From positions 8,353 through 72,352 of the forward strand of contig CALVJW010000002.1 in assembly GCA_944332435.1 (NCBI GenBank): a stretch of 64,000 bases of DNA, in the 5' to 3' direction. Source of the DNA: an uncultured Bacilli bacterium. GTDB taxonomy: Bacteria > Bacillota_I > Bacilli_A > RF39 > UBA660. The notes under the pieces are model-generated. The model ran no database searches. It was not told the origin of the DNA and was given only the letters and a program-made list of their open reading frames with translations. A program made the position numbers and the translations under genes. Numbering within the stretch: position 1 is the first letter of the stretch; the number at the start of each line of letters is the position of its first letter. Shown here piece after piece: positions 18,243-62,010 of this stretch.

Positions 18243-19391
18243 CTATTTTAAAAAGAGAAAATGAAAACTACTTTTCCAAGCTTTACTAACATCATAATCC
18301 AATATTTTTAACACTTTATCTTCTAGTTTATTATAAATTTTTTGGATAATTTTTCTATTCATCAACCATACTCTAGTCCACTCTATGATAATACCAGTAA
18401 TAAAGATAGCTAAAATTATTAAAATACTATAAATAATAAATAAACGGCTATAGAATAAAGCATAAGTATTCACTAAGTTCTTCCATAAATAATATCGAAC
18501 AAATGGGTTATCATGAAATAAATAAACACCTAGAGTCATACCCGCTATTTTATTCAGTAATGGATATTGTTTTGTCTTTAATGTTTTAAAGTATAAAAAT
18601 AAATATACTCCTGCTAAAAAAGCTGGGATACGATTTAATGCAATATATGTTTTTACCCATTCGTTTGAAGCATGAAAAATTTCAAATCCAAACATTGAAA
18701 AAAGGATAAATATGTAACAACAAATAAAGCCATAAAAATAGTGTTTATTCACTCCCGATGATATAGACTTTTCATAATATTTTTTTATATAAGCACCAAT
18801 TAAATAAATATATATTAAATAAGTAAAATGTTCATGTTGGTTTCCCAAAGAAGAAAAGAAAAAAGTATTGATTCCAATAAATAGAATAAAAAAAGTCATA
18901 AGTAACGTTTCTAAATCTTTTCGCTTCATTTTATGTACCATCATATTTAAATATGGTGACAATACATAGACAATTACATAACCAGTTATAAACCAATATT
19001 CTCTAAAAATAATTGGAAACAAGGAATGTACTACTTCACTTAAACTAAACGTTCTTCCAATGAAAGTAAAAACAATTAATATTCCAACTGAATAAGTCCA
19101 TGTTTGAATAATTAATGACAATAATTTTTTAGTTTTATACTTAGACTCGAGCATAAAATAGCCCGTAATCATCATGAAGCAAACTACACCAATTTTTCCA
19201 CCTATTGCCAAAAAATCAACAAATAACCGAGGAAATAATGGTGTTTTTGGAAAAACTCCGTAAATTGCAAAATGATGGCCAATAATAAGAAGCATGCTGA
19301 TAATTCTAAGAATTTCTAAATTACTATCTCTTGTTTTCTTTTTTATCTGTTGCATATTATACTTCCCACTTAATAATTGTTTTAAATTCAT
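18243..19391 (-). CDS. acyltransferase family 3 membrane protein, paralog 2
   Basis: 382 aa polytopic protein with the N-terminal LRIISMLLIIGHH motif of PF01757. Confidence 0.6.
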   Translation of the reverse strand: MNLKQLLSGKYNMQQIKKKTRDSNLEILRIISMLLIIGHHFAIYGVFPKTPLFPRLFVDFLAIGGKIGVVCFMMITGYFMLESKYKTKKLLSLIIQTWTYSVGILIVFTFIGRTFSLSEVVHSLFPIIFREYWFITGYVIVYVLSPYLNMMVHKMKRKDLETLLMTFFILFIGINTFFFSSLGNQHEHFTYLIYIYLIGAYIKKYYEKSISSGVNKHYFYGFICCYIFILFSMFGFEIFHASNEWVKTYIALNRIPAFLAGVYLFLYFKTLKTKQYPLLNKIAGMTLGVYLFHDNPFVRYYLWKNLVNTYALFYSRLFIIYSILIILAIFITGIIIEWTRVWLMNRKIIQKIYNKLEDKVLKILDYDVSKAWKSSFHFLFLK

Positions 19392-20373
19392 TATTTATAT
19401 CGATATCAAAAGCTTCTGACAATTCCTTTTCATTGGTAACAGAAATCACATCAGAACATAAAATTTTAATACGTGAACATACAATTTCATCTGTTTCTAA
19501 TATTTTTTTTGCTTCTAAGAAATCATTTCGATCTGCTCGATTATTCCCAATGATAACAATCCCTTTTTCTAAAATCTTTCTAGTATTAATAGGAATCTTC
19601 TCTTCTGCAAGACCAATTAATGATATAAACCCTTGTGGTTCTATATGTTCCAAAATACCTTCAATAGAATTTACACTTTGTGTTCCACCAACACATTCAA
19701 AAGCACAATCAAATTTCATGTTTTTTGGCAACTCTTCCGTTGTATAAGTTTGATCAGCAAATGTAAAAAAAGGTAATTTTGTGCCACTTTTTCCAATCAC
19801 TGTTAAACGACAATCAGGAAAATAATATTTAATTAAAACGGCTATTGCATAACCTATATTTCCATCTCCCCAAATTGCAATATCAGAAAAAGAGTCTTTA
19901 TATTTTCTTAAGGTTTGAATAGCATTAATTCCAATTGTCATAATTTCACTAAATACAGCTACTTTTTCGTCAATATGTTCAAATGGTACCAATCGTTCTC
20001 GATCAATAAAAACATAATCTCTTGTAAATCCTTCTGCCGTACTGGAACTAAATCGATTTTGCGGTAAGTAATTTGCTTTTATACAAGATTTTTTTCCTTT
20101 TTCAATTAACGGAATCAATACTACTTGCGTTCCCTTTTTTAGTTTTCCCATAGGATCATAAACAACACTACCAATTGCTTCATGAATTAAACATAGTGGC
20201 AATCGTTCTTTTAACACTTTTTCTTCTTTTTTTCCATAAAAATATTTTAAATCTGAATTACAAATAGATAAAAAAGTTGGTCTTACAATAACTTGGTTTT
20301 CCTCTAGTTCTTCTGATACAAAGTCAATATCAAATGTTCTAGGACTTTTTAAGCGATAAAATTGATTAATCAT
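19357..20373 (-). CDS. tarJ: ribitol-5-phosphate 2-dehydrogenase (TarJ-like, zinc-dependent MDR family)
   Basis: Zn-ADH fold (CNSDLKYF, GDGNIGY NAD motif). A start at MINQFYRLKSPRTF resembles TarJ and overlaps the tarI stop. Confidence 0.65.
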   Translation of the reverse strand: MINQFYRLKSPRTFDIDFVSEELEENQVIVRPTFLSICNSDLKYFYGKKEEKVLKERLPLCLIHEAIGSVVYDPMGKLKKGTQVVLIPLIEKGKKSCIKANYLPQNRFSSSTAEGFTRDYVFIDRERLVPFEHIDEKVAVFSEIMTIGINAIQTLRKYKDSFSDIAIWGDGNIGYAIAVLIKYYFPDCRLTVIGKSGTKLPFFTFADQTYTTEELPKNMKFDCAFECVGGTQSVNSIEGILEHIEPQGFISLIGLAEEKIPINTRKILEKGIVIIGNNRADRNDFLEAKKILETDEIVCSRIKILCSDVISVTNEKELSEAFDIDINNEFKTIIKWEV

Positions 20374-21082
20374 GGTTAACACCAGTTTCTAAAATTGCAT
20401 TAGCAACTTTCAAATTATATAAAGTTGTAATTTTAATATTATAATCTTTTCCATTTACAAGAGCCACTTTCTCACCTTTTGTTGTAAAAATTTTGCAACC
20501 ATCAGTTAAAGTTTGCTTTTCTTTTTCCGTTAAAGATTCAAATAATTTGATTAACTTCTGAATATTAAATGCTTGTGGATTTTGTCCGTAATACATTTCT
20601 TTTCTTATTGGTATCTCCGTAATGAATTTTCCATCTTTTGATTGTACGATTGTTTCTACTGCTGGATAAACGGTATCTGTTGCCCCATATTTCAAACATA
20701 ATTCAATATTATCTGTAATCATTTTTTGAGTTAAAAATGGTGTTACAGCATCATGTGATACAATAATATCATCTTTTTTTAATCCATATTTTTCTTTAAT
20801 ATGATAACAACCATTCATAAGGGAATCTGCTCTTGTTTCTCCACCTTCAACAATATCAATATTTTCAGTATTTGGAAGATATTTAGAAATTAAATCTTCG
20901 GCATAATGAAGCCATTCAGGATTTATACAAATAACAATTTTGTCAATTTCAGGATGTACATAAAATTGTTCTAATGTATGAATTAAAATAGGTTTATCAC
21001 CTAACATTAAAAATTGTTTTGGTCGCTCCGTATTTCCCATTCTACTTCCGGAACCACCAGCTAATATAACTGCATATTTCAT
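20366..21082 (-). CDS. tarI: ribitol-5-phosphate cytidylyltransferase (IspD/TarI family)
   Basis: MKYAVILAGGSGSRMG...KQF N-terminal nucleotidyltransferase motif. Lies next to the TarJ-like gene. GAGGTGG RBS before ATG 21082. Confidence 0.7.
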   Translation of the reverse strand: MKYAVILAGGSGSRMGNTERPKQFLMLGDKPILIHTLEQFYVHPEIDKIVICINPEWLHYAEDLISKYLPNTENIDIVEGGETRADSLMNGCYHIKEKYGLKKDDIIVSHDAVTPFLTQKMITDNIELCLKYGATDTVYPAVETIVQSKDGKFITEIPIRKEMYYGQNPQAFNIQKLIKLFESLTEKEKQTLTDGCKIFTTKGEKVALVNGKDYNIKITTLYNLKVANAILETGVNHD

Positions 21083-21129
21083 TTTTCCACCTCTCATTGT
21101 CTAACTATTATTATACACGAAATTATATG

Positions 21130-22451: not shown

Positions 22452-23309
22452 CTATTCTAAATTATTTCTAAATTCTTTTAATGCTTTTAAAAATTCATCA
22501 TTCTTTTTTGTTTCATCTGATAATGGTCCTAAGTCAAAAGTATGTTCTAAATCTGGAATTTCATTTGTCTTTAAATTTACTTTTACATCATCAAACTGTA
22601 ATTCTTTATTATCATGATGAATCTGAAATTCCTCCTTAAAATTAGGAATTTTAGGATAATCTAGTTCTCCACTTTCTACTTTTCCATAAACAGGAGAAAT
22701 AAATTCTGTTCTCGAATACGTATTTTTATCTTTTGTAACTTCACTTGGTTTTACTACTTCTTTTTCTATAGTAGGCTCTAATCTATCTTCTGCTATTCGA
22801 GGTGGTATTACTTTATCAATTTCAGGTCGTTTGGTAACAGAATATGCTTCCTGTTCTTTTTCATAATGTTCAATTTCTTTCGTATGATCTTGCTTTTCTT
22901 TCATCGCTTTTAATTCTTGATAACTAATAATTGATTTTTCTTCTTGCTCTTCTTCAAAAGTATGAATTGGATCTTTTTCATGTTTCTTTAAGTCAGACTG
23001 CATTTGTTCTAATAATAATTCAATTTCAGAAATAGATTCTTTTGTCTTATTATCTTCTACTTTTTCCACTGCTGAATTTTCTACTAAATGTTCAATCTCT
23101 GGAATAGAATCTACTTCTTCTACCTCTTGTATTAAAGGTGTTATTTTTTCTTCTTTTGTTTCTGATTCAATTTCATCGATTTCAGCTTCTACTTTCTTTT
23201 TCGCATAATGTAGAAAACCCATTCCAGCTAATGTTACTAATACAAGCCCAATTAAAATAATGAAAATTAATTCTGTATCAGATATTGCAAATAAAACCAT
23301 ATATATCAC
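22452..23309 (-). CDS. hypothetical N-terminally anchored Glu/Lys-rich low-complexity protein
   Basis: One N-terminal TM helix, then about 250 aa that are highly acidic and repetitive in E/K. Confidence 0.4.
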   Translation of the reverse strand: MIYMVLFAISDTELIFIILIGLVLVTLAGMGFLHYAKKKVEAEIDEIESETKEEKITPLIQEVEEVDSIPEIEHLVENSAVEKVEDNKTKESISEIELLLEQMQSDLKKHEKDPIHTFEEEQEEKSIISYQELKAMKEKQDHTKEIEHYEKEQEAYSVTKRPEIDKVIPPRIAEDRLEPTIEKEVVKPSEVTKDKNTYSRTEFISPVYGKVESGELDYPKIPNFKEEFQIHHDNKELQFDDVKVNLKTNEIPDLEHTFDLGPLSDETKKNDEFLKALKEFRNNLE

Positions 23310-24019
23310 TCCATATATTCATAATTAATAATACTCATGAAAAAAATTGGCACAGTTTCCACTCGCATAATATTATTCCCTAAACGTACAGGAAGAAAGC
23401 CAATTTTCATGAGTGTGTTCTCTTCTACCGTTGTTAGTCCTCCCTCAGGACCAATCACTACTATTATTCTATCACAGTTTACATGGTTTTGCAAAAGAAT
23501 ATGTAAATTATTATTATGACTTACTGTACTACAAACAAGTTTCAAACCTTCCATTTTTTCTAAGTCTTTTATCTCTAATACACTAGTTACTTCTGGTATC
23601 GTAATACGTTTTGATTGTTCACTCGCTTCTTTGGCAATTTTGTTCCATCTTTCCACACGCTTCATCTTTTTATTTTGCTCAAGTTTTACAACACTTCGCG
23701 TTAATTTTAATGGAATAATTTTATGTACTCCAAGTTCCGTTGCTTTTTGAATAATAAAGTCCATTTTTTGTTCTTTTAAAAGTGGAATACAAAGTACTAC
23801 TTCTGGTATTTTTTGAACTTCATTTTCCACGATTTCCAGCGCTTTTATTCTATACATTTCATTGACAATTTCTATACACGATAAATACATTTTTTCTTGA
23901 TAAACAACTTCGACTTTATCTTGTTCCTTCATCCGCATCACAACACGAATATGATATAAATCATTTTCATCTAATATAAAATAACCATCTTTTAATTCTT
24001 TACTAAAATATCGTTGCAT
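23306..24019 (-). CDS. rsmE: 16S rRNA (uracil1498-N3)-methyltransferase
   Basis: PUA-like N-terminus and the C-terminal SPOUT motif VIGPEGGLT. Confidence 0.8.
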   Translation of the reverse strand: MQRYFSKELKDGYFILDENDLYHIRVVMRMKEQDKVEVVYQEKMYLSCIEIVNEMYRIKALEIVENEVQKIPEVVLCIPLLKEQKMDFIIQKATELGVHKIIPLKLTRSVVKLEQNKKMKRVERWNKIAKEASEQSKRITIPEVTSVLEIKDLEKMEGLKLVCSTVSHNNNLHILLQNHVNCDRIIVVIGPEGGLTTVEENTLMKIGFLPVRLGNNIMRVETVPIFFMSIINYEYME

Positions 24020-24070
24020 CTAATCACCAATCATATTATACCGAAAAATGAAAAAAAGTAAAACAACTTT

Positions 24071-24676
24071 TTATTTTACTTTTTTGGGTTTATATACATA
24101 TGAGATTACTTTCGCAAATTCATATAAAATCATATTACTTTGATTAATTGCAAAACTTTTTCCAAGTGCTTTACCACCAATCGTAAGTGCTGCAATAACT
24201 GCTGTAATTACTAATGTTGTAAAAAGCGGATCAGTATGACAAGTCTCAACAATATTATTTGCAACAATTACTCCCGCAGACCCTGAAATAATACCACAAA
24301 TATCCCCTATTACATCATTACAGAAAGAAGAAACTTTATTCGCATTATGAATAAATTTAATTGCTACTTTTGAACCCTTAACTTTTTGCGCACTCATCGA
24401 ATGAAATGGTTTTTCATTCGCCGCTGTTACTGAGACACCAATCATATCAAAAATAATACCAATTGCAATAAAAACAATGACCAAAATAATACTAATAAAC
24501 ATACCAACATTTGGTAAAATGGTCTCTGATCCTAATGAAAAGAAAAAAGAAATAAATAACGCAATCAATGTAATTTTTACTACCCACACATAATTCGATT
24601 TTTCTTTTTTCTTGTTTGCCTTTTTTAATTTTCGAATTACTTCTTGTTCTTTTTTTTCCATGATTAACTCCTTCAT
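24071..24676 (-). CDS. oapA: small four-TM membrane protein with a Lys-rich N-terminus; candidate OLE-associated protein OapA
   Basis: 201 aa (about 22 kDa). N-terminal KKEQEVIRKLKKANKKKEK stretch, then four predicted TM helices. Lies directly downstream of, and co-oriented with, the GC-rich ncRNA. Confidence 0.45.
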   Translation of the reverse strand: MKELIMEKKEQEVIRKLKKANKKKEKSNYVWVVKITLIALFISFFFSLGSETILPNVGMFISIILVIVFIAIGIIFDMIGVSVTAANEKPFHSMSAQKVKGSKVAIKFIHNANKVSSFCNDVIGDICGIISGSAGVIVANNIVETCHTDPLFTTLVITAVIAALTIGGKALGKSFAINQSNMILYEFAKVISYVYKPKKVK

Positions 24677-24689
24677 GATTATAAAAAAA

Positions 24690-25266
24690 ATGAATGGCTA
24701 TCCATATAGTAAACTTTGCGCCTTCAGGTCAAGTAGGTTTTCCCTTATCCTTACTCTCCGTTACCAGAAAAGCGGTTCCCCATTAAAAGGATAAATGTAG
24801 CGTCACCGCATACATGACTTGATTACCACTTAGTACACACTGCAATCCTACATGGAGCTACATTCTAGGAGTTTTCCTCAACAATCCTTTATTATTAATT
24901 CTCTTTTGCAGTAACAATTTCAACTTGCAATAACAAACGAATTGTGGCCACAATCAGTTTGCTTGATCAAATATTCCAAGCTACCACTCAAGACAAGCTA
25001 CACTACTCGTAAGTTACCTCACATAGTAGGTTCAAGCCTAAGTCGTCATAGCTAAAACTATAACAAGATTAGGTCTCCGCGAAAAATTGGGTCGTGATCG
25101 TATGCCATTACGGTCGCCCAATTTCTCTTCCTTTCAGCACCCACCCCAAACTGGGCGTATGAAGCAAGCACCAAAAGTTTCATAGATATGCTCTTTAACG
25201 GATTTTTAGCCCCGTCTTCATAATAAATAAAATTGACTAGAATAATGTGCCATTCATTTATTTATA
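24690..25266 (-). ncRNA. large structured ncRNA, candidate OLE (ornate, large, extremophilic) RNA
   Basis: About 570 nt non-coding island at roughly 45% GC in a 28% GC genome, with many local hairpins. It is bounded by a consensus sigma-A promoter on the minus strand and a T8 run at 24693-24700. No ORF. The next gene encodes an OapA-like membrane protein. Confidence 0.5.
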
Positions 25267-25272
25267 TGAGTA

Positions 25273-25300
25273 ATTATATCAAATTTATGTCATTTGTCAA
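25273..25300 (-). promoter_or_regulatory. sigma-A promoter for the ncRNA
   Basis: Minus strand: TTGACA, 16-nt spacer, TGATATAAT (extended -10). Confidence 0.6.
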
Positions 25301-25332
25301 ATTTTATTATATTATTTAATTTATTTCTATAA

Positions 25333-25363
25333 ATGAAAAACAGAGAACATTTTCTTCTCTGTC
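25333..25363 (-). terminator. rho-independent terminator of rnr
   Basis: ACAGAGAA...TTCTCTGT hairpin followed by a T-run on the minus strand. Confidence 0.6.
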
Positions 25364-25389
25364 TTTACTTATTAATAATTTAATCAATC

Positions 25390-27477
25390 TTATTTTTTTA
25401 CTTTTACTTTTGTAGTTGGTAAAATATCAAATTCAATTACTTGCTGCTCTTTATCAGAACGAATTAATCGTAATGTTACCTTATTACCAATTTTGTAAAC
25501 CTTACTATGATTTGGATTTTCATAAGTAAGTTTCTCTTCATGATAACAAACATCCTCTAATGTTTCGGCATTCACTTGTCCCGCAATTAAATTTTTTAAT
25601 GTAACATAAATTCCTTTTTTATCTAACCATGTTATTTTACCTTCAAACAATTCTCCAATATGAGATTCTAAGTATTCAGCACATTTCATTTTTTCTACGG
25701 TTCGTTCACATTCCTCAGCTCTTCTTTCACAATAAGACGCTTGTTCTGTCATTCTTTCATATTTCTTTTCCATCGCATTAAATTTAGAACGATTGATATT
25801 ACCTTTTAACATTTCTTTTAAAGCTCGATGAACCATTAAATCTGGATAACGACGAATCGGCGATGTAAAATGTGTATAATTACGACTTGCTAGTGCATAA
25901 TGATGTTGATTGGAATTAGAATAACAAGCTTTTTTCATACTACGAAGAAGTAAGTTGGCAAGAATATCAAATTTTTCTGTTTCTCGAAAACGTTCCAACT
26001 CTTTTTGTAAAGATTTTGCTGAAACAGGTCCATGACTAGTATCAATACGTACTGGTAATTCTAATTTATTTGCTGTTTCAACAAACATATTTAACTTTTC
26101 TTCATCTGGTTCTTCATGTACTCGATAAATAAATGGTAAGCCTAATTCTACCATACGAGTTGTTACCGCTTCATTCGCAGCAATCATAAAGTCTTCGATG
26201 ATTCGTTCTCCTTCACCACGCTGATAACTTTTAATAGCCGTTGGCTCTCCTAATTCATTTGTATCAATGATTCGTTCTTCCGTATCAAAATTAATACTAC
26301 CACGTTTCTTTTTGGCTTTTCTTAAAATATGTGATAATTCTAACATAGTCTGTAACAATTCAGTAAATTCTTGATAATCTTCTTTAGGATTACCTTTTAA
26401 TGCTTCATTCACATTATGATATGTCATTCTCTTTTTAGAATGAATAACACTTTCAAAAATATCGGTATGAACAATTTGACCTCTAGTATTAATTTCCATC
26501 TTACATGTCATAGTAAGCCGATCAACACCTGGATTTAATGAACAAATACCATTTGATAATTTACTTGCAAGCATTGGTGTTACATATCCTGGTGTATAAA
26601 GACTAGTACCTCGTTTATATGCTTCTTTATCAATTTCCTTTCCCTCTATTACATAATGAGAAACATCAGCAATATGTACTCCTAATTCATAATTTCCATT
26701 TTCTAATCTCTTAATCGATATTGCATCATCAAAATCTTTTGCCGTATCCCCATCAATAGTAACAATCATTTCATCTCTTAAATCAACTCGATTTTCAAGT
26801 TCTTCTTCTGTTACTTGTGTTGGTATTTCTTCTACTTGATCCATTACTTTTTTAGAAAATTGATCAGGAATACCAAGTTCTTTCATAACTGACAGTACAT
26901 CGACTCTTGGATCATTTTTATGACCTAATACTCTAGTAACTGATCCAATATAATAGTCTTTTTTATACTTTTTTCCAATTTTAACTAATACTTTATTATC
27001 AATATATGCTCCACCCATATTTTCTAATAATACGGGAAATGGATATTTAGGATTATCTAATTTAGCAAAAAATTTGCCATCTTGTTCATATACCATTCCA
27101 ACATGTTCTTGCTCTTTTATCACTCTATCTACTACTTTACCACGTAATTTTTGTTGATTACTAGATTGTAATTCAACTAAAATGGTATCACCATCTAAAG
27201 CTCCATGCAAATCAGATTGCCTCACAAGAACTTTCTTTTCACCATTTACTAAAAATCCAAATCCTCTTTTTGTCATATATAACTTTCCAACTACATGATT
27301 TTTATCGGTAGTCTTTACATAATGTTTTGGTGTAATTTCTTTTACCTGTAATGTCTTTTGTAATTCTTGTAGTGCTAACGTAACTTCTTCTTCTGTTACT
27401 TCTAATTTCTTACTTAATTCTGCAATGGATATTCCATGTTTTGCTTTTAACAATTGTAATACTTGTTCTAAATTCAT
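25390..27477 (-). CDS. rnr: ribonuclease R
   Basis: N-terminal HTH/CSD, RNB domain with TIDGDTAKDFDDAIS and HFTSPIRRYPDL, and a C-terminal S1 domain. Confidence 0.9.
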   Translation of the reverse strand: MNLEQVLQLLKAKHGISIAELSKKLEVTEEEVTLALQELQKTLQVKEITPKHYVKTTDKNHVVGKLYMTKRGFGFLVNGEKKVLVRQSDLHGALDGDTILVELQSSNQQKLRGKVVDRVIKEQEHVGMVYEQDGKFFAKLDNPKYPFPVLLENMGGAYIDNKVLVKIGKKYKKDYYIGSVTRVLGHKNDPRVDVLSVMKELGIPDQFSKKVMDQVEEIPTQVTEEELENRVDLRDEMIVTIDGDTAKDFDDAISIKRLENGNYELGVHIADVSHYVIEGKEIDKEAYKRGTSLYTPGYVTPMLASKLSNGICSLNPGVDRLTMTCKMEINTRGQIVHTDIFESVIHSKKRMTYHNVNEALKGNPKEDYQEFTELLQTMLELSHILRKAKKKRGSINFDTEERIIDTNELGEPTAIKSYQRGEGERIIEDFMIAANEAVTTRMVELGLPFIYRVHEEPDEEKLNMFVETANKLELPVRIDTSHGPVSAKSLQKELERFRETEKFDILANLLLRSMKKACYSNSNQHHYALASRNYTHFTSPIRRYPDLMVHRALKEMLKGNINRSKFNAMEKKYERMTEQASYCERRAEECERTVEKMKCAEYLESHIGELFEGKITWLDKKGIYVTLKNLIAGQVNAETLEDVCYHEEKLTYENPNHSKVYKIGNKVTLRLIRSDKEQQVIEFDILPTTKVKVKK

Positions 27478-27479
27478 TT

Positions 27480-29204
27480 CTATTCCCCCTGACAACTTTG
27501 TTTTATATTGTGTAATTTTAAAACTTTCTGTTTATCTTGCTGTTTTCCATATTGTATTTCAATTAATTTTTCAACTAATTCTTGATAAGTAGAAATTTCC
27601 TCTTTTTTATCATAAATTAACAACTCTTTTAAAATTATCATATTAATTAATGCAAAATAATTTCTAAGTGGTGTTGTAATATGAGTATATTGATTCACTC
27701 CTAATCCTCGGTGACCAACATTTTCATAACTATAATATGAACGTAAATTCAAGTTTTCAATTTTTCTTCTAATCGAAGATTCTTCATTTTCTTGATTACA
27801 TTTCTCTTCAATTTGTTCTACTGCCTGTTTTGTTACTTCTGATTCATTATTTCGATAAATAAGTGGTAAATCTCTTTCTAAAAAGGCTTTTGCTAAAATT
27901 GTACCTAATAAAATTTTGAATTCACTTACTACCATATATTTTGACTCTGGTTCATATTTCCTACTGTACTCTAAATAATATTTTAACTCTTTTACTTTAT
28001 GATATCTTTTTTTTGAATAATTTGATTCATGCAATACTTTTGCAATCTCATAAATCCTTATTTTTTCACTATTTTTCCCTTTTCTCGCTCGTCTAACTTT
28101 ATCTTTTATGCAATCATAACTATAATTTTTAGAAACAGAAATATTTGCCGGATATACAAGTACTTCAGTTAATTGATTTTCATAATTAAATATCATCTCA
28201 TAAGCAATGACTGCTCTTTCTTTCCCTGAATCTAATGAAAAATTTTGTTTTGCATATTCATAGTCAAATACATAATCTTTTCGATAAACAAACCAATTTA
28301 AAAATGCTTCCTCTATCAATTCTTCCGATTCCATAAATTGTTCTGTAGGATCTGTAATATACATCGTAATATGTGTTAAACCATCTTCTTCATAAATAGA
28401 AAGTGCATCTTCTCTAAGACCTGTACTTTCTTCATCAATCGTAAAAATTTCTAATGAGGAAGGTATTTTTTTAGATGACAAAAATTGCATTGAATAGCGA
28501 TTAAATTGTGGTAATTCACGATATTTCATCTGAATGCAAATATGCATCAATTCATTTAATCGATAACGATACTTTAATGGAATTTCTGTTAAATGATTGC
28601 GAATATAGTAATCAAGTTTTTGAGCAAACTCATTTGACCATGACTCAATATGTTCTGTTTCTAATAATAAGTAGCGAAGCAAAGACTTCCAATAACTATA
28701 TTCTGCATAATCATCCGTAAATAATTGTTCTAAATAAGTTTGAAAAAAATCATCTAATATTATTTTATCTTGAATAAATAATGCTAAAAAATCAGGTTGG
28801 TTCATGAGATGTCTTACAAGACTTTCTTGATGGTAATAATAAACGCTTAAATACCACTCATCTTTGCGTTTAAAATCATCATTTGAAATAATTTTCTTCG
28901 TTTTCGACAGAGAAAATATTCGATCTTGTATTTCCTGATATAAGCGATAATTTGGTAAATGACAATTTTTTCCATCATCAATATAGAATCCATATAAGTA
29001 ATCTACTTTTTGTAAAACACGAAATAAATATTTTGGAAATTCTAACTGATTATTTTGTTCTATTTCATCTAACATGCTATTTAAATAATTCAAAAGAAGT
29101 TCAATTGTTTGTTCAATATTTATACCAAAAAAATCTTTTATCTCTTCAACTGTAACTTCTTTTTTTCTTAACATAGCTGTTAATACTCTTTGATTCATAA
29201 CCAA
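27480..29204 (-). CDS. divergent RNB-domain (RNase II/R family) paralog, probably catalytically degenerate
   Basis: 574 aa. RNB motif I reads TIDEESTGLREDALS where rnr has TIDGDTAKDFDDAIS. Motif IV reads YTHITTPLRNY where rnr has HFTSPIRRY. No CSD or S1 domains. Overlaps the rnr start by 16 nt. Confidence 0.5.
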   Translation of the reverse strand: MVMNQRVLTAMLRKKEVTVEEIKDFFGINIEQTIELLLNYLNSMLDEIEQNNQLEFPKYLFRVLQKVDYLYGFYIDDGKNCHLPNYRLYQEIQDRIFSLSKTKKIISNDDFKRKDEWYLSVYYYHQESLVRHLMNQPDFLALFIQDKIILDDFFQTYLEQLFTDDYAEYSYWKSLLRYLLLETEHIESWSNEFAQKLDYYIRNHLTEIPLKYRYRLNELMHICIQMKYRELPQFNRYSMQFLSSKKIPSSLEIFTIDEESTGLREDALSIYEEDGLTHITMYITDPTEQFMESEELIEEAFLNWFVYRKDYVFDYEYAKQNFSLDSGKERAVIAYEMIFNYENQLTEVLVYPANISVSKNYSYDCIKDKVRRARKGKNSEKIRIYEIAKVLHESNYSKKRYHKVKELKYYLEYSRKYEPESKYMVVSEFKILLGTILAKAFLERDLPLIYRNNESEVTKQAVEQIEEKCNQENEESSIRRKIENLNLRSYYSYENVGHRGLGVNQYTHITTPLRNYFALINMIILKELLIYDKKEEISTYQELVEKLIEIQYGKQQDKQKVLKLHNIKQSCQGE

Positions 29205-52206: not shown

Positions 52207-52650
52207 TTATAAATTATTTAATTTTTCACGAATTATTTTATTTACAAATCCTAAATCAGCTTTTCCCTTCACTTTTGGAGTGATGGCTCCCATTAATTTT
52301 CCCATATCCTTTACACTAGTTGGTTTTACTTCATCAAATACAGAATCGATAATAGCAATTACTTCTTCTTCACTCATTTGTTCTGGCATATAAACATTTA
52401 ATAAATCAATTTCACTTTGTGTTTGACTAATTAAATCTTCTCTTCCACCCTTTTCGAATTCAACAATCGATTCTTTTCTTGTTTTTATTTGTTTGGCAAT
52501 AATTGTAATAATTTCATCATCCGTTAAATCTCTTTTTTTATTAATTTCTTCTAATTGGATTGCCCCTTTTACCATACGAATAACTGATAATTTTTCTTTT
52601 TCTTTATTTTTCATTGCTTCTTTTAAATCATTTAATAATCTTTCTTTCAT
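52207..52650 (-). CDS. yqeY: GatB/YqeY domain protein
   Basis: 147 aa, YqeY-like throughout (LNDLKEAMK...RRESI..Y...GR.DL). Confidence 0.8.
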   Translation of the reverse strand: MKERLLNDLKEAMKNKEKEKLSVIRMVKGAIQLEEINKKRDLTDDEIITIIAKQIKTRKESIVEFEKGGREDLISQTQSEIDLLNVYMPEQMSEEEVIAIIDSVFDEVKPTSVKDMGKLMGAITPKVKGKADLGFVNKIIREKLNNL

Positions 52651-56670: not shown

Positions 56671-56892
56671 TTATTTTAAATTAGACATTAAAGATTGCAT
56701 AATTTCAAATGTTTCCAACATTTTTGTAAAACGATCACTTGGTCTAAGTTGATAAGTATCCTTTACTTCTTCTATAAATGTTTGAAAAGTACTTGGATCT
56801 CGATTTAGCATTTTATACCAATAAGAATGTTCTTTTAGGTATCTTTGGTAATAAGGATTATTCTTTATCTTAAATTGTAAGTCAATTGTCAT
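56671..56892 (-). CDS. small hypothetical protein
   Basis: 73 aa. Confidence 0.3.
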   Translation of the reverse strand: MTIDLQFKIKNNPYYQRYLKEHSYWYKMLNRDPSTFQTFIEEVKDTYQLRPSDRFTKMLETFEIMQSLMSNLK

Positions 56893-57263
56893 TAATCTTC
56901 AAAATGTTTATAAATTGGTCTTGGCTTATAAGTTTCTTTTTTCGGTTCATCTTTATTACCAAAATCTTGTAATACGCCTAATACTCTTTGAATACTATTG
57001 ACCCCATTTTGAATACTATCTAAATCAATTTGTTTAACAAAATTAACAATTTCTGGGAAACCAATTCCCGCCGTAGTACTAGCCACTGTTTGTTCTGCTC
57101 TTTCTTCTTTCTTATTTAAATAATCTTTCCAAACAGTATCATCATCGCCATATAAATCATACATTTCATAAAACTTTTGCCAGTCCATTTCTCCTGTTCG
57201 TACATACTTTACCAATTGTGGATTTTCTTTTACAAACTTTTTAAATGCTTCCTTATTTGCCAT
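56892..57263 (-). CDS. hypothetical protein
   Basis: 123 aa. AGGTGG RBS before MANKEAF. Confidence 0.35.
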   Translation of the reverse strand: MANKEAFKKFVKENPQLVKYVRTGEMDWQKFYEMYDLYGDDDTVWKDYLNKKEERAEQTVASTTAGIGFPEIVNFVKQIDLDSIQNGVNSIQRVLGVLQDFGNKDEPKKETYKPRPIYKHFED

Positions 57264-57452
57264 TATAACCACCTAATACAGTATATGCGCAAATTAATAT
57301 TTATACACAAAAAGAAAGTAGCAATTACTTTCTTTTCCACTAATGATTATTTTTTTCTAGTTCATATTAATCATAAATTAAATATTAAATTTTTTACTAT
57401 TTCCTTCATCATTATATTTTTAATACCAATATAAATGTTTCCTTACTCTTTC

Positions 57453-60893: not shown

Positions 60894-61904
60894 TTATAAC
60901 TGGTGTAAGACCTGATTTAGACTACTTGCAAGCATTTGACTTTGCTTTTTTATTAAAAAATCAATTTCTTTTGGTGTTACAATTAAATTATATCCAACAG
61001 GTGTTAATACTTCAATAAATAATTGTTTTAATTCTTCTTCTGTTAAATAGCCAAGTAATCCGAGTAATTCCACTTTATCTTCTGGGGAAGCGGTTACTTC
61101 TTTTTCTAAATAGTTGACAGTTCCGCTCACCACTAGTTTGGAAGATGGTTTTTTATGATTCGATTTTGTATATGAGAAATGTTGATGCATAAATTTGACG
61201 GTATCACTTACCACGGTTACTAAATCTACAACGGTTGGAATTCCAATCGCAATAACAGGGACTCCAATCGTTTCTTTACTAATTTCTTTTCGTTTATTTC
61301 CAACTCCACTTCCAGGATGAATTCCAGTATCTGTAATTTGGATTGTTTTATTTACTCGAGAAATAGAGCTACTTTTTAAAGCATCTATTACAAGAATGAA
61401 ATCTGGCTTTACTTCGTCTACCACCCCTTTAATAACTGCAATCGTTTCTATTCCCGTTTCTCCCATTACCCCAGGTGAAATTGCCGCAACATTACGGAAA
61501 CGTGGATCTACATCACCAATTTCATATAAATGTCTCGTTACAATCACTTCTTCTATTGCAAGTGGTCCTAATGCATCAGGGGTTGATTTATCATTTCCTA
61601 ATCCTACAACTAAAATAACACTATTTTTTGTCATTCCCATTTCTTCTAATAATTGTCTCAATTGTTTTACAACCGCTGCTTCCACTTTTTGCCGATTTTG
61701 TGTATATTTAATATCTAGAAACTTAATCGTTACATAACTACCTTTCTTTTTATCAATAACATTCGCTTCTTCTTTTGATAAAATCATTTTAGTAACCGTA
61801 ATATTATCTTCCAAAATCCGCTCTTGTTTACTTTGATTTCCTGCTTCATCGATTGCAAGATCCGTACGAATTTCATAATTTGATAAATCAATTTCATGTT
61901 TCAT
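60894..61904 (-). CDS. gpr: germination protease (GPR endopeptidase)
   Basis: DLSNYEIRTDLAIDEA N-terminus and A25 peptidase core. GGTGAT RBS before ATG 61904. Confidence 0.8.
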   Translation of the reverse strand: MKHEIDLSNYEIRTDLAIDEAGNQSKQERILEDNITVTKMILSKEEANVIDKKKGSYVTIKFLDIKYTQNRQKVEAAVVKQLRQLLEEMGMTKNSVILVVGLGNDKSTPDALGPLAIEEVIVTRHLYEIGDVDPRFRNVAAISPGVMGETGIETIAVIKGVVDEVKPDFILVIDALKSSSISRVNKTIQITDTGIHPGSGVGNKRKEISKETIGVPVIAIGIPTVVDLVTVVSDTVKFMHQHFSYTKSNHKKPSSKLVVSGTVNYLEKEVTASPEDKVELLGLLGYLTEEELKQLFIEVLTPVGYNLIVTPKEIDFLIKKQSQMLASSLNQVLHQL

Positions 61905-62010
61905 TATAATCACCACTATTATTTTTACCAAAAATCCCCGTTTTTATTTGCAATTTCTTATAATTATGATAAAATAGATGTGTGCTTAAGAACTGGGAGG
62001 TGAAAGAACT

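Follow-up and report, generated by a model that had tools for sequence, protein, structure and literature searches.

OLE RNAs, described in 2006 and modelled in Rfam, occur in Bacillota that are typically anaerobic or extremophilic, and about 25% of their nucleotides are >97% conserved. To our knowledge, few bacterial non-coding RNAs are as large or as well conserved, and we know of no organism in which the biochemical activity of OLE RNA has been established. The ole gene of Halalkalibacterium halodurans lies in a neighbourhood of what are presumably isoprenoid, DNA-repair and translation genes. It is part of an operon but also has a promoter of its own, and its RNA accumulates at a length of ~630 nt (PMC9723947). 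The RNA is abundant, is tethered at the membrane by OapA, needs OapB and OapC and contacts bS21, and the resulting particle protects the cell against ethanol and other short-chain alcohols, against cold and excess Mg2+, and against poor carbon sources (PMC12265935, PMC12286853, PMC9723947, PMC12054373). Recent cryo-EM studies describe an OLE RNA dimer, for which a membrane-spanning arrangement is proposed (PMC12265935, PMC12286853), and OapA is proposed to be an MpfA-related divalent-cation transporter (PMC11332333). A published survey of GTDB includes 2,822 OLE genes across Bacillota, uncultured gut clades among them, and describes variant 1 RNAs (TANB77) with short P7-P9 helices that often lack the P13 site for OapB, and variant 2 RNAs (RF39) in which P7 and P8 are wholly missing (PMC11332333).

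Here we describe an ole locus in a 64,000-nucleotide stretch of DNA (the window) from an uncultured gut bacterium. We consider it nearly certain that the locus is the ole-oapA module of an uncultured, low-GC gut member of the Bacilli. The interval 24678-25269 (minus strand, 592 nt) gives the sole above-gathering match in a cmscan of the 64-kb window against Rfam 15, aligning untruncated to the OLE model RF01071 over model positions 1-616 of 616, with 435.6 bits (gathering score, 50 bits) and an E-value of 1.3e-124 (4e-126 when the match is repeated on a 2-kb slice). The sequence-only reading of this DNA had named the region as a candidate OLE RNA and had proposed a search with the OLE, tmRNA, RNase P and SRP models; OLE alone was returned, at full length and with the hallmarks of OapA encoded downstream, and the computational results that it had listed as grounds against OLE (such as a significant match to a different RNA family, or no match at all) were not encountered.

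A large housekeeping RNA, for instance tmRNA, RNase P RNA or SRP RNA, would also suit the adjacency to rnr, the size and the GC enrichment of the region, which are all that point to such an RNA. Against this, tmRNA, RNase P and SRP RNAs give no Rfam match at the gathering threshold across the 64 kb, nor at E<=1 within 24000-26000, where the only match besides OLE is a chance-level one inside oapA. ARAGORN finds no tmRNA and no tRNA in the whole 64-kb window, in agreement with the earlier failure to recognize a tmRNA here. With the OLE model explaining the interval from end to end, a housekeeping RNA is left with practically no probability.

The stretch had been singled out for its GC enrichment and repeats, and both are found at the place indicated, with small numerical corrections. 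Its GC content had been put at ~45% in a 28% GC genome; the genome value stands (27.8% for the 64 kb), but the interval measures 38-40%, with 38.2% for 24678-25269, 38.0% for 24690-25300, 38.0-39.1% over the two spans originally delimited, and a maximum of 43.5% in any 200-nt window of the interval. No 592-nt stretch of the 64 kb is richer in GC than those centred on OLE, which lie about 3.9 sd above the mean. A second GC-rich spot near 61,000 was considered as an RNA and rejected, since it lies inside a germination-protease gene. The statement that the interval holds no ORF is borne out for the minus strand, where none of at least 50 aa occurs and each frame contains 8-18 stops; the sole ORF of at least 50 aa is a spurious plus-strand TTG ORF (24612-24794, 60 aa) overlapping the OLE 3' end. 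Hidden coding potential was likewise rejected, given the stops in all frames. The inverted repeats previously noted, AAATTGGGTCG at 25084-25094 with CGGTCGCCCAATTT at 25111-25124, and TTGTGGCCACAA at 24942-24953, are present, and all of them fall within helices of the OLE model.

In the cmscan alignment, the parsed form of which reproduces the window sequence exactly, canonical pairs are formed by 142 of the 153 scored pairs (93%), i.e. those of the 159 model pairs for which both nucleotides are present, and the remaining 11/153 are non-canonical. The strongly conserved (upper-case) consensus positions are identical in 216 of 249 cases (87%). As judged from sequence, the interval is a full-length-type member of the known OLE RNA family. 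It resembles the full-length OLE RNAs of H. halodurans and Clostridium acetobutylicum (PMC11332333) in its size (~590 nt), in having all model helices but one hairpin, in its conserved single-stranded motifs and P13 GNRA tetraloop with bulge, and in having oapA directly downstream in a Bacillota host. It differs from them in belonging to a 28% GC uncultured gut Bacilli bacterium and not an extremophile, in its flanking genes (rnr upstream; rsmE, a gene of unassigned family and mtaB downstream), and in having no terminator between ole and oapA. In addition, it lacks a small hairpin (model positions 424-435), as does the whole clade, and its hairpin at model positions 198-241 has an apical loop 7 nt shorter than that of the consensus and a tip shorter than in most relatives. 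The locus is of an already-known type and adds little new beyond annotation: a 0.6-kb 'intergenic' gap becomes a real RNA gene, the adjoining hypothetical membrane protein receives the name OapA, and a compact full-length-type OLE is added from an uncultured 28% GC gut lineage, with knowledge of the OLE family left unchanged.

Helix names were assigned through the nucleotide numbers that appear in the text of PMC9723947 and PMC12054373. As far as these numbers go, P4a would correspond to model positions 54-73, P5 to 93-139, P6 to 144-192, P7 to 198-241, P8 to 249-277 and P9 to 286-383, and P4a-P9 as mapped are all present in the window RNA. Variants 1 and 2 come from uncultured gut Bacillota known from metagenome bins, the same setting as that of the window. 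Unlike them, the window RNA keeps P7, P8 and P9, under the names so assigned, and the P13 GUGA loop, and would therefore be of the full-length type and neither variant 1 nor variant 2.

The elements that contact protein partners in H. halodurans can be placed on this map. The first model hairpin (GACGGG-GCUAAAAAU-CCGUU; 25197-25216, minus strand, model positions 54-73), in which 5 of 6 pairs covary among relatives (helix 1), is the putative P4a, a partial OapA contact site (PMC12265935). The long hairpin with a GCCCA loop (25131-25177, minus strand, model positions 93-139), comprising 20 pairs that are 91.9% paired, nine of them with double changes (helix 2), would correspond to P5/P5.1, the flanks of which, in H. 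halodurans, form a k-turn to which OapC and bS21 bind (PMC9723947, PMC12054373). The P13 hairpin (24795-24815, minus strand), located by projection of the cmscan alignment, is built from a 5-bp and a 3-bp stem with a bulged U (24810) between them, is capped by a GUGA tetraloop (24803-24806), and is 96.7% paired with six covarying pairs (helix 16). Binding of OapB in H. halodurans requires a GNRA loop and a single-nucleotide bulge (PMC7936274), and this published determinant is kept in the window RNA. In three relatives (L009, L011 and L013), the tip of P13 is missing together with its GNRA loop (alignment A2, columns 506-515), a loss similar to that published for variant 1; the window RNA retains the P13 tip. 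Small L7Ae- or KOW-type proteins resembling OapB or OapC are absent from the 30 window ORFs scanned, a 64-kb scope that is uninformative for the whole genome. From the published pattern, a genome with full-length OLE would be expected to have oapB and oapC but no mpfA (PMC11332333). The gene for bS21, a reported component of the OLE RNP in H. halodurans (PMC12054373), is found ~27 kb from ole as rpsU (PF01165; 52704-52967, minus strand), adjoining yqeY (52207-52650, minus strand); in the TTG ORF as listed, the S21 domain begins at residue 23, and the true start is probably further downstream.

Public data contain >6,000 OapA homologues. When 19 of these were aligned and used to scan genomes, 80 loci were returned, almost all in metagenome bins of uncultured gut Bacilli, Bacillota, Erysipelotrichaceae or Mollicutes, the closest being CALVRW01 (93% protein identity). 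In 15 of the 17 loci scanned for the RNA, a full-length OLE match (360-433 bits) lies upstream of the oapA homologue, at a distance within ~340 nt in 14 of these 15 and directly adjacent in most; in the remaining one, L013, the distance is ~1 kb. The other two loci (L008 and L018) give no OLE match at E<=0.01 within 4 kb of the oapA homologue (7-8 kb examined each), showing that the pairing of ole with oapA is not absolute. In both, the OapA homologue (L008 3992-4594 and L018 4046-4579; 56-64% identity) is directly preceded by protein-coding genes, and either ole is located elsewhere in the genome or OapA occurs without OLE.

For covariation, 16 RNAs were aligned with MAFFT and the Rfam structure was projected onto them, so that the values refer to the Rfam fold and not to one derived independently. 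Among the 16 sequences, 86.9% of cells form a standard pair in the projected structure, compared with 38.6-46.9% in controls with slid partners; 92 of the 153 pairs are changed on both sides (32-50 in the controls), and the covariation score is 0.419 (0.083-0.144 in the controls). None of 500 column shuffles reaches any of the observed covariation measures. This excess over slid controls and shuffles demonstrates that the OLE fold is under selection in this clade of gut Bacilli, and many alignment columns are in addition invariant across the 16 members. A covariation check on homologous regions had been suggested by the sequence-only reading, and it reveals compensatory changes in homologous loci where the RNA is kept beside oapA. 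One hairpin varies within the clade: in 11 of the 16 members, the hairpin at model positions 198-241 carries a 20-25-nt extension (alignment A2, columns 219-245) with a conserved CCUAUAC...UGAnGGA motif; the extension is missing in the window, L007, L015, L027 and L030, and has no counterpart in the Rfam consensus.

These data also bear on whether the locus might be a decaying, non-functional OLE remnant in a gut symbiont with a reduced genome. In favour of decay, truncated OLE variants are known in the reduced-genome clades RF39 and TANB77 (PMC11332333), the RNA lacks one small hairpin, and its hosts belong to the uncultured gut Bacilli. However, the bit score of the window RNA equals or exceeds those of its relatives, it retains 87% of the strongly conserved positions and 93% of the pairs, and the compensatory changes across the clade indicate purifying selection on the fold. 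The promoter is moreover a perfect consensus, and the intact oapA encodes a protein whose motif residues are invariant, making decay very improbable.

The upstream limit of the ole unit is marked by the intrinsic terminator of rnr (25335-25362, minus strand), which follows the end of rnr at 25390 and consists of the hairpin ACAGAGAAgaaaatgTTCTCTGT and then UUUUUCAUUU. It folds with -14.5 kcal/mol (z -4.6), none of 200 shuffles being as stable, and its stem is the same palindrome that is reported by the terminator/promoter scan. The sigma-A type promoter of ole (25273-25300, minus strand) is exactly as the sequence-only reading had given it and is the best site in the region, matching 12 of 12 consensus positions with an extended -10 TG: TTGACA (25300-25295), a 16-nt spacer and TGaTATAAT, i.e. 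TGATATAAT (25281-25273). The -10 element ends 4 nt ahead of model position 1, and the start site is predicted at ~25265-25267 from the usual distance of 6-8 nt. In 15 of 15 relatives, a promoter matching 9-12 of 12 positions has its -10 end within 5 nt of model position 1; the same register in all 15 indicates that a dedicated promoter is a clade-wide feature. In H. halodurans, ole likewise has its own promoter inside a co-directional gene array (PMC9723947).

At the OLE 3' end, a U8 tract is read from the sequence at 24683-24690 (minus strand); the T8 run had been correctly noticed earlier, with a position (24693-24700) that was 10 nt off. The primary transcript up to the end of this U-run would be ~584-585 nt. 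The segment around the tract (24662-24735) folds with -7.9 kcal/mol and a z of +0.7, no better than shuffles; no stable hairpin directly precedes the tract, and the scan calls no minus-strand terminator at it. A canonical intrinsic terminator is thus not supported, and the tract would be at most a weak or partial terminator. The RBS of oapA, GAAGGAG (24668-24674, minus strand, read from the sequence), begins 8 nt after the U8 tract and is separated by 6 nt from the ATG at 24661, leaving no room for a promoter, and oapA has none of its own. The lack of a terminator hairpin, the 8-nt gap and the lack of an oapA promoter together suggest that ole and oapA are probably co-transcribed.

Expression of the module would then proceed as follows. 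Transcription of ole would start at ~25266 from the sigma-A promoter, just past the rnr terminator, and the first ~585 nt would fold into the conserved OLE architecture. With no effective terminator after the U8 tract and no promoter for oapA, the polymerase probably reads into oapA, and perhaps on into rsmE (23306-24019) and beyond. OLE would be released from this co-transcript by processing or by partial termination. A promoter-like sequence (TTTACT-16-TATAAT, 10 of 12; 24035-24062, minus strand) is present in the 52-nt gap between oapA and rsmE, and rsmE may have its own start besides any read-through from ole-oapA.

The arrangement differs among relatives. A clear hairpin and U-run terminator follows OLE in 8 of 15 (L010, L012, L013, L020, L022, L023, L025 and L026), and L013 and L020 additionally have a small ORF between OLE and oapA; a U-run without a hairpin is found in the window, L007, L009 and L011. 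Thus the transcriptional coupling of ole and oapA varies within the clade, and the absence of a terminator is confined to the window's genus and a few further ones. The layout of the window, shared by L007, L009 and L011, with no terminator hairpin, a gap of 8 nt between the U8 tract and the RBS and no separate promoter for oapA, would also suit an RNA that acts mainly in cis, as a structured 5' leader controlling oapA translation or stability with no separate stable RNA. The terminators between OLE and oapA in 8 of 15 relatives, accompanied by an extra ORF in two of them, and the ~1 kb between ole and oapA in L013 argue instead that an RNA with the same fold is made as a separate unit in close relatives, and OLE of H. 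halodurans is an abundant ~630-nt RNA acting in trans (PMC9723947). We regard a mainly cis-acting leader as quite unlikely; cis and trans roles of OLE are in any case mutually compatible.

A further reading, rather doubtful at present, is that ole and oapA form a self-contained two-gene cassette whose internal terminator, retained by most relatives, was lost in the window's genus, making OLE an obligatory 5' leader of oapA that needs 3' processing. Such a cassette would carry its own consensus promoter and stand in a different neighbourhood in almost every species, with the output of RNA and protein fixed to one transcript, and the 3' processing could conceivably be performed by the RNase R encoded immediately upstream. 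If this were true, the locus would offer a natural case of coupled RNA-protein expression for the study of OLE RNP assembly, and a compact, culture-independent OLE system.

The gene downstream of ole (24071-24661, minus strand) encodes a 196-aa membrane protein. Its ORF is listed from 24676, and the likely start is the ATG at 24661 with its RBS, 16 nt after the end of the OLE model match; gene calls in public assemblies also begin at this ATG and give 196 aa. The earlier description of a 22-kDa, Lys-rich protein with four transmembrane segments fits well: the protein has 21.4 kDa, a pI of 9.7, 11.7% Lys and a strongly basic N-terminus, with hydrophobic segments at residues ~22-50, 43-82, 116-135 and 143-167. 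An AF2 model (pLDDT 85, pTM 0.75) has helices at 24-51, 54-80, 107-141 and 145-173. The DxxxD motif, which sets OapA apart from CNNM domains (PMC11332333), occurs here as DVIGD (residues 116-120), with both of its Asp invariant among the 19 homologues. The CNNM domain (PF01595) scores 16.4 bits, under its cut-off of 28.4, and no other Pfam domain, no NCBIfam family and, in a sequence search, no PDB chain at E<=1 is matched. Foldseek places transmembrane CNNM domains of CorB/CorC (7M1T, 7M1U, 7CFF, 7CFG) at ranks 1-5 for the model (probability 0.98-1.00, TM 0.46-0.48), so that kinship with CorB/CorC is visible at the fold level alone.

For H. halodurans OapA, a CNNM match below threshold and CorB as the top structural match are likewise published (Fernando & Breaker 2024, PMC11332333). 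With OapA the window protein has in common a length of ~200 aa, four transmembrane segments, DxxxD and an N-terminus that is basic and rich in Lys; it too matches CNNM below threshold and has its best structural match in CorB (7M1T/7M1U). In the MpfA/CorB/CorC Mg2+ transporters, a CBS pair and a CorC/HlyC domain are present, both of which are missing from the window protein. By the criteria of PMC11332333, the DxxxD motif, four helices, sub-threshold CNNM match and CorB-like fold identify the 196-aa protein as OapA, at the level of sequence and predicted structure. By homology with the distant H. halodurans, the single model organism for this mechanism, OLE would be bound by OapA, a CNNM-like four-helix putative divalent-cation transporter, and this binding would tether the RNA to the membrane as an RNP; most likely, the same OLE RNP forms in the window organism.

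The gene order around the module is rnr, ole, oapA, rsmE, a 285-aa gene without assigned family, and mtaB. The upstream neighbour had been named as rnr, and this assignment is secure (TIGR02063, 688 bits). By tblastn, recurrence of the rnr, rsmE and mtaB neighbours is limited to same-strain contigs and a single congeneric genome (L007), and they are absent within 4 kb in the other 79 loci; rnr, rsmE, mtaB and ispD are also not mentioned in the text of PMC11332333. A functional link of ole to rnr, rsmE or mtaB through synteny is therefore not supported, the order not being conserved. Since the neighbours differ outside ole-oapA, the context is no evidence of function, and the conserved unit is ole with oapA.

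Several genes near the module are of interest in their own right. Directly upstream of rnr, and overlapping its start by 16 nt, a divergent RNB-domain protein of 574 aa is encoded (27480-29204, minus strand; PF00773, 96 bits), without CSD or S1 domains and far under every NCBIfam cut-off for RNase II/R. Together with rnr it forms a tandem RNase II/R-like pair, an arrangement kept in L007 (82% identity). The 285-aa protein between rsmE and mtaB (22452-23309, minus strand), the start of which overlaps the rsmE stop, combines a hydrophobic segment at the N-terminus with a long tail rich in Glu and Lys; it is conserved (92%) in L007 and gives no match to Pfam or NCBIfam. Downstream of mtaB, at 19357-21097 (minus strand), a gene for a TarI-like D-ribitol-5-phosphate cytidylyltransferase (NF001183, 336 bits) overlaps a zinc-type alcohol dehydrogenase gene that may be TarJ-like. 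This pair suggests CDP-ribitol synthesis for teichoic acid or capsule, which, if so, would point to a walled Gram-positive host.

The nearest genomes are gut MAGs of uncultured Bacilli, Bacillota or Erysipelotrichaceae, and the host is presumably anaerobic. The window also encodes DnaB/DnaI helicase loaders, YlbD and rubrerythrin. The germination protease Gpr (60894-61931, minus strand; PF03418, 366 bits), encoded where the GC content of the window is second highest, and the YlbD/YlbE-like proteins encoded at 56671-57272 (minus strand) suggest a spore-forming host. The occurrence of OLE correlates with sporulation genes (PMC11332333), and the presence of Gpr and YlbD in the window fits this correlation.
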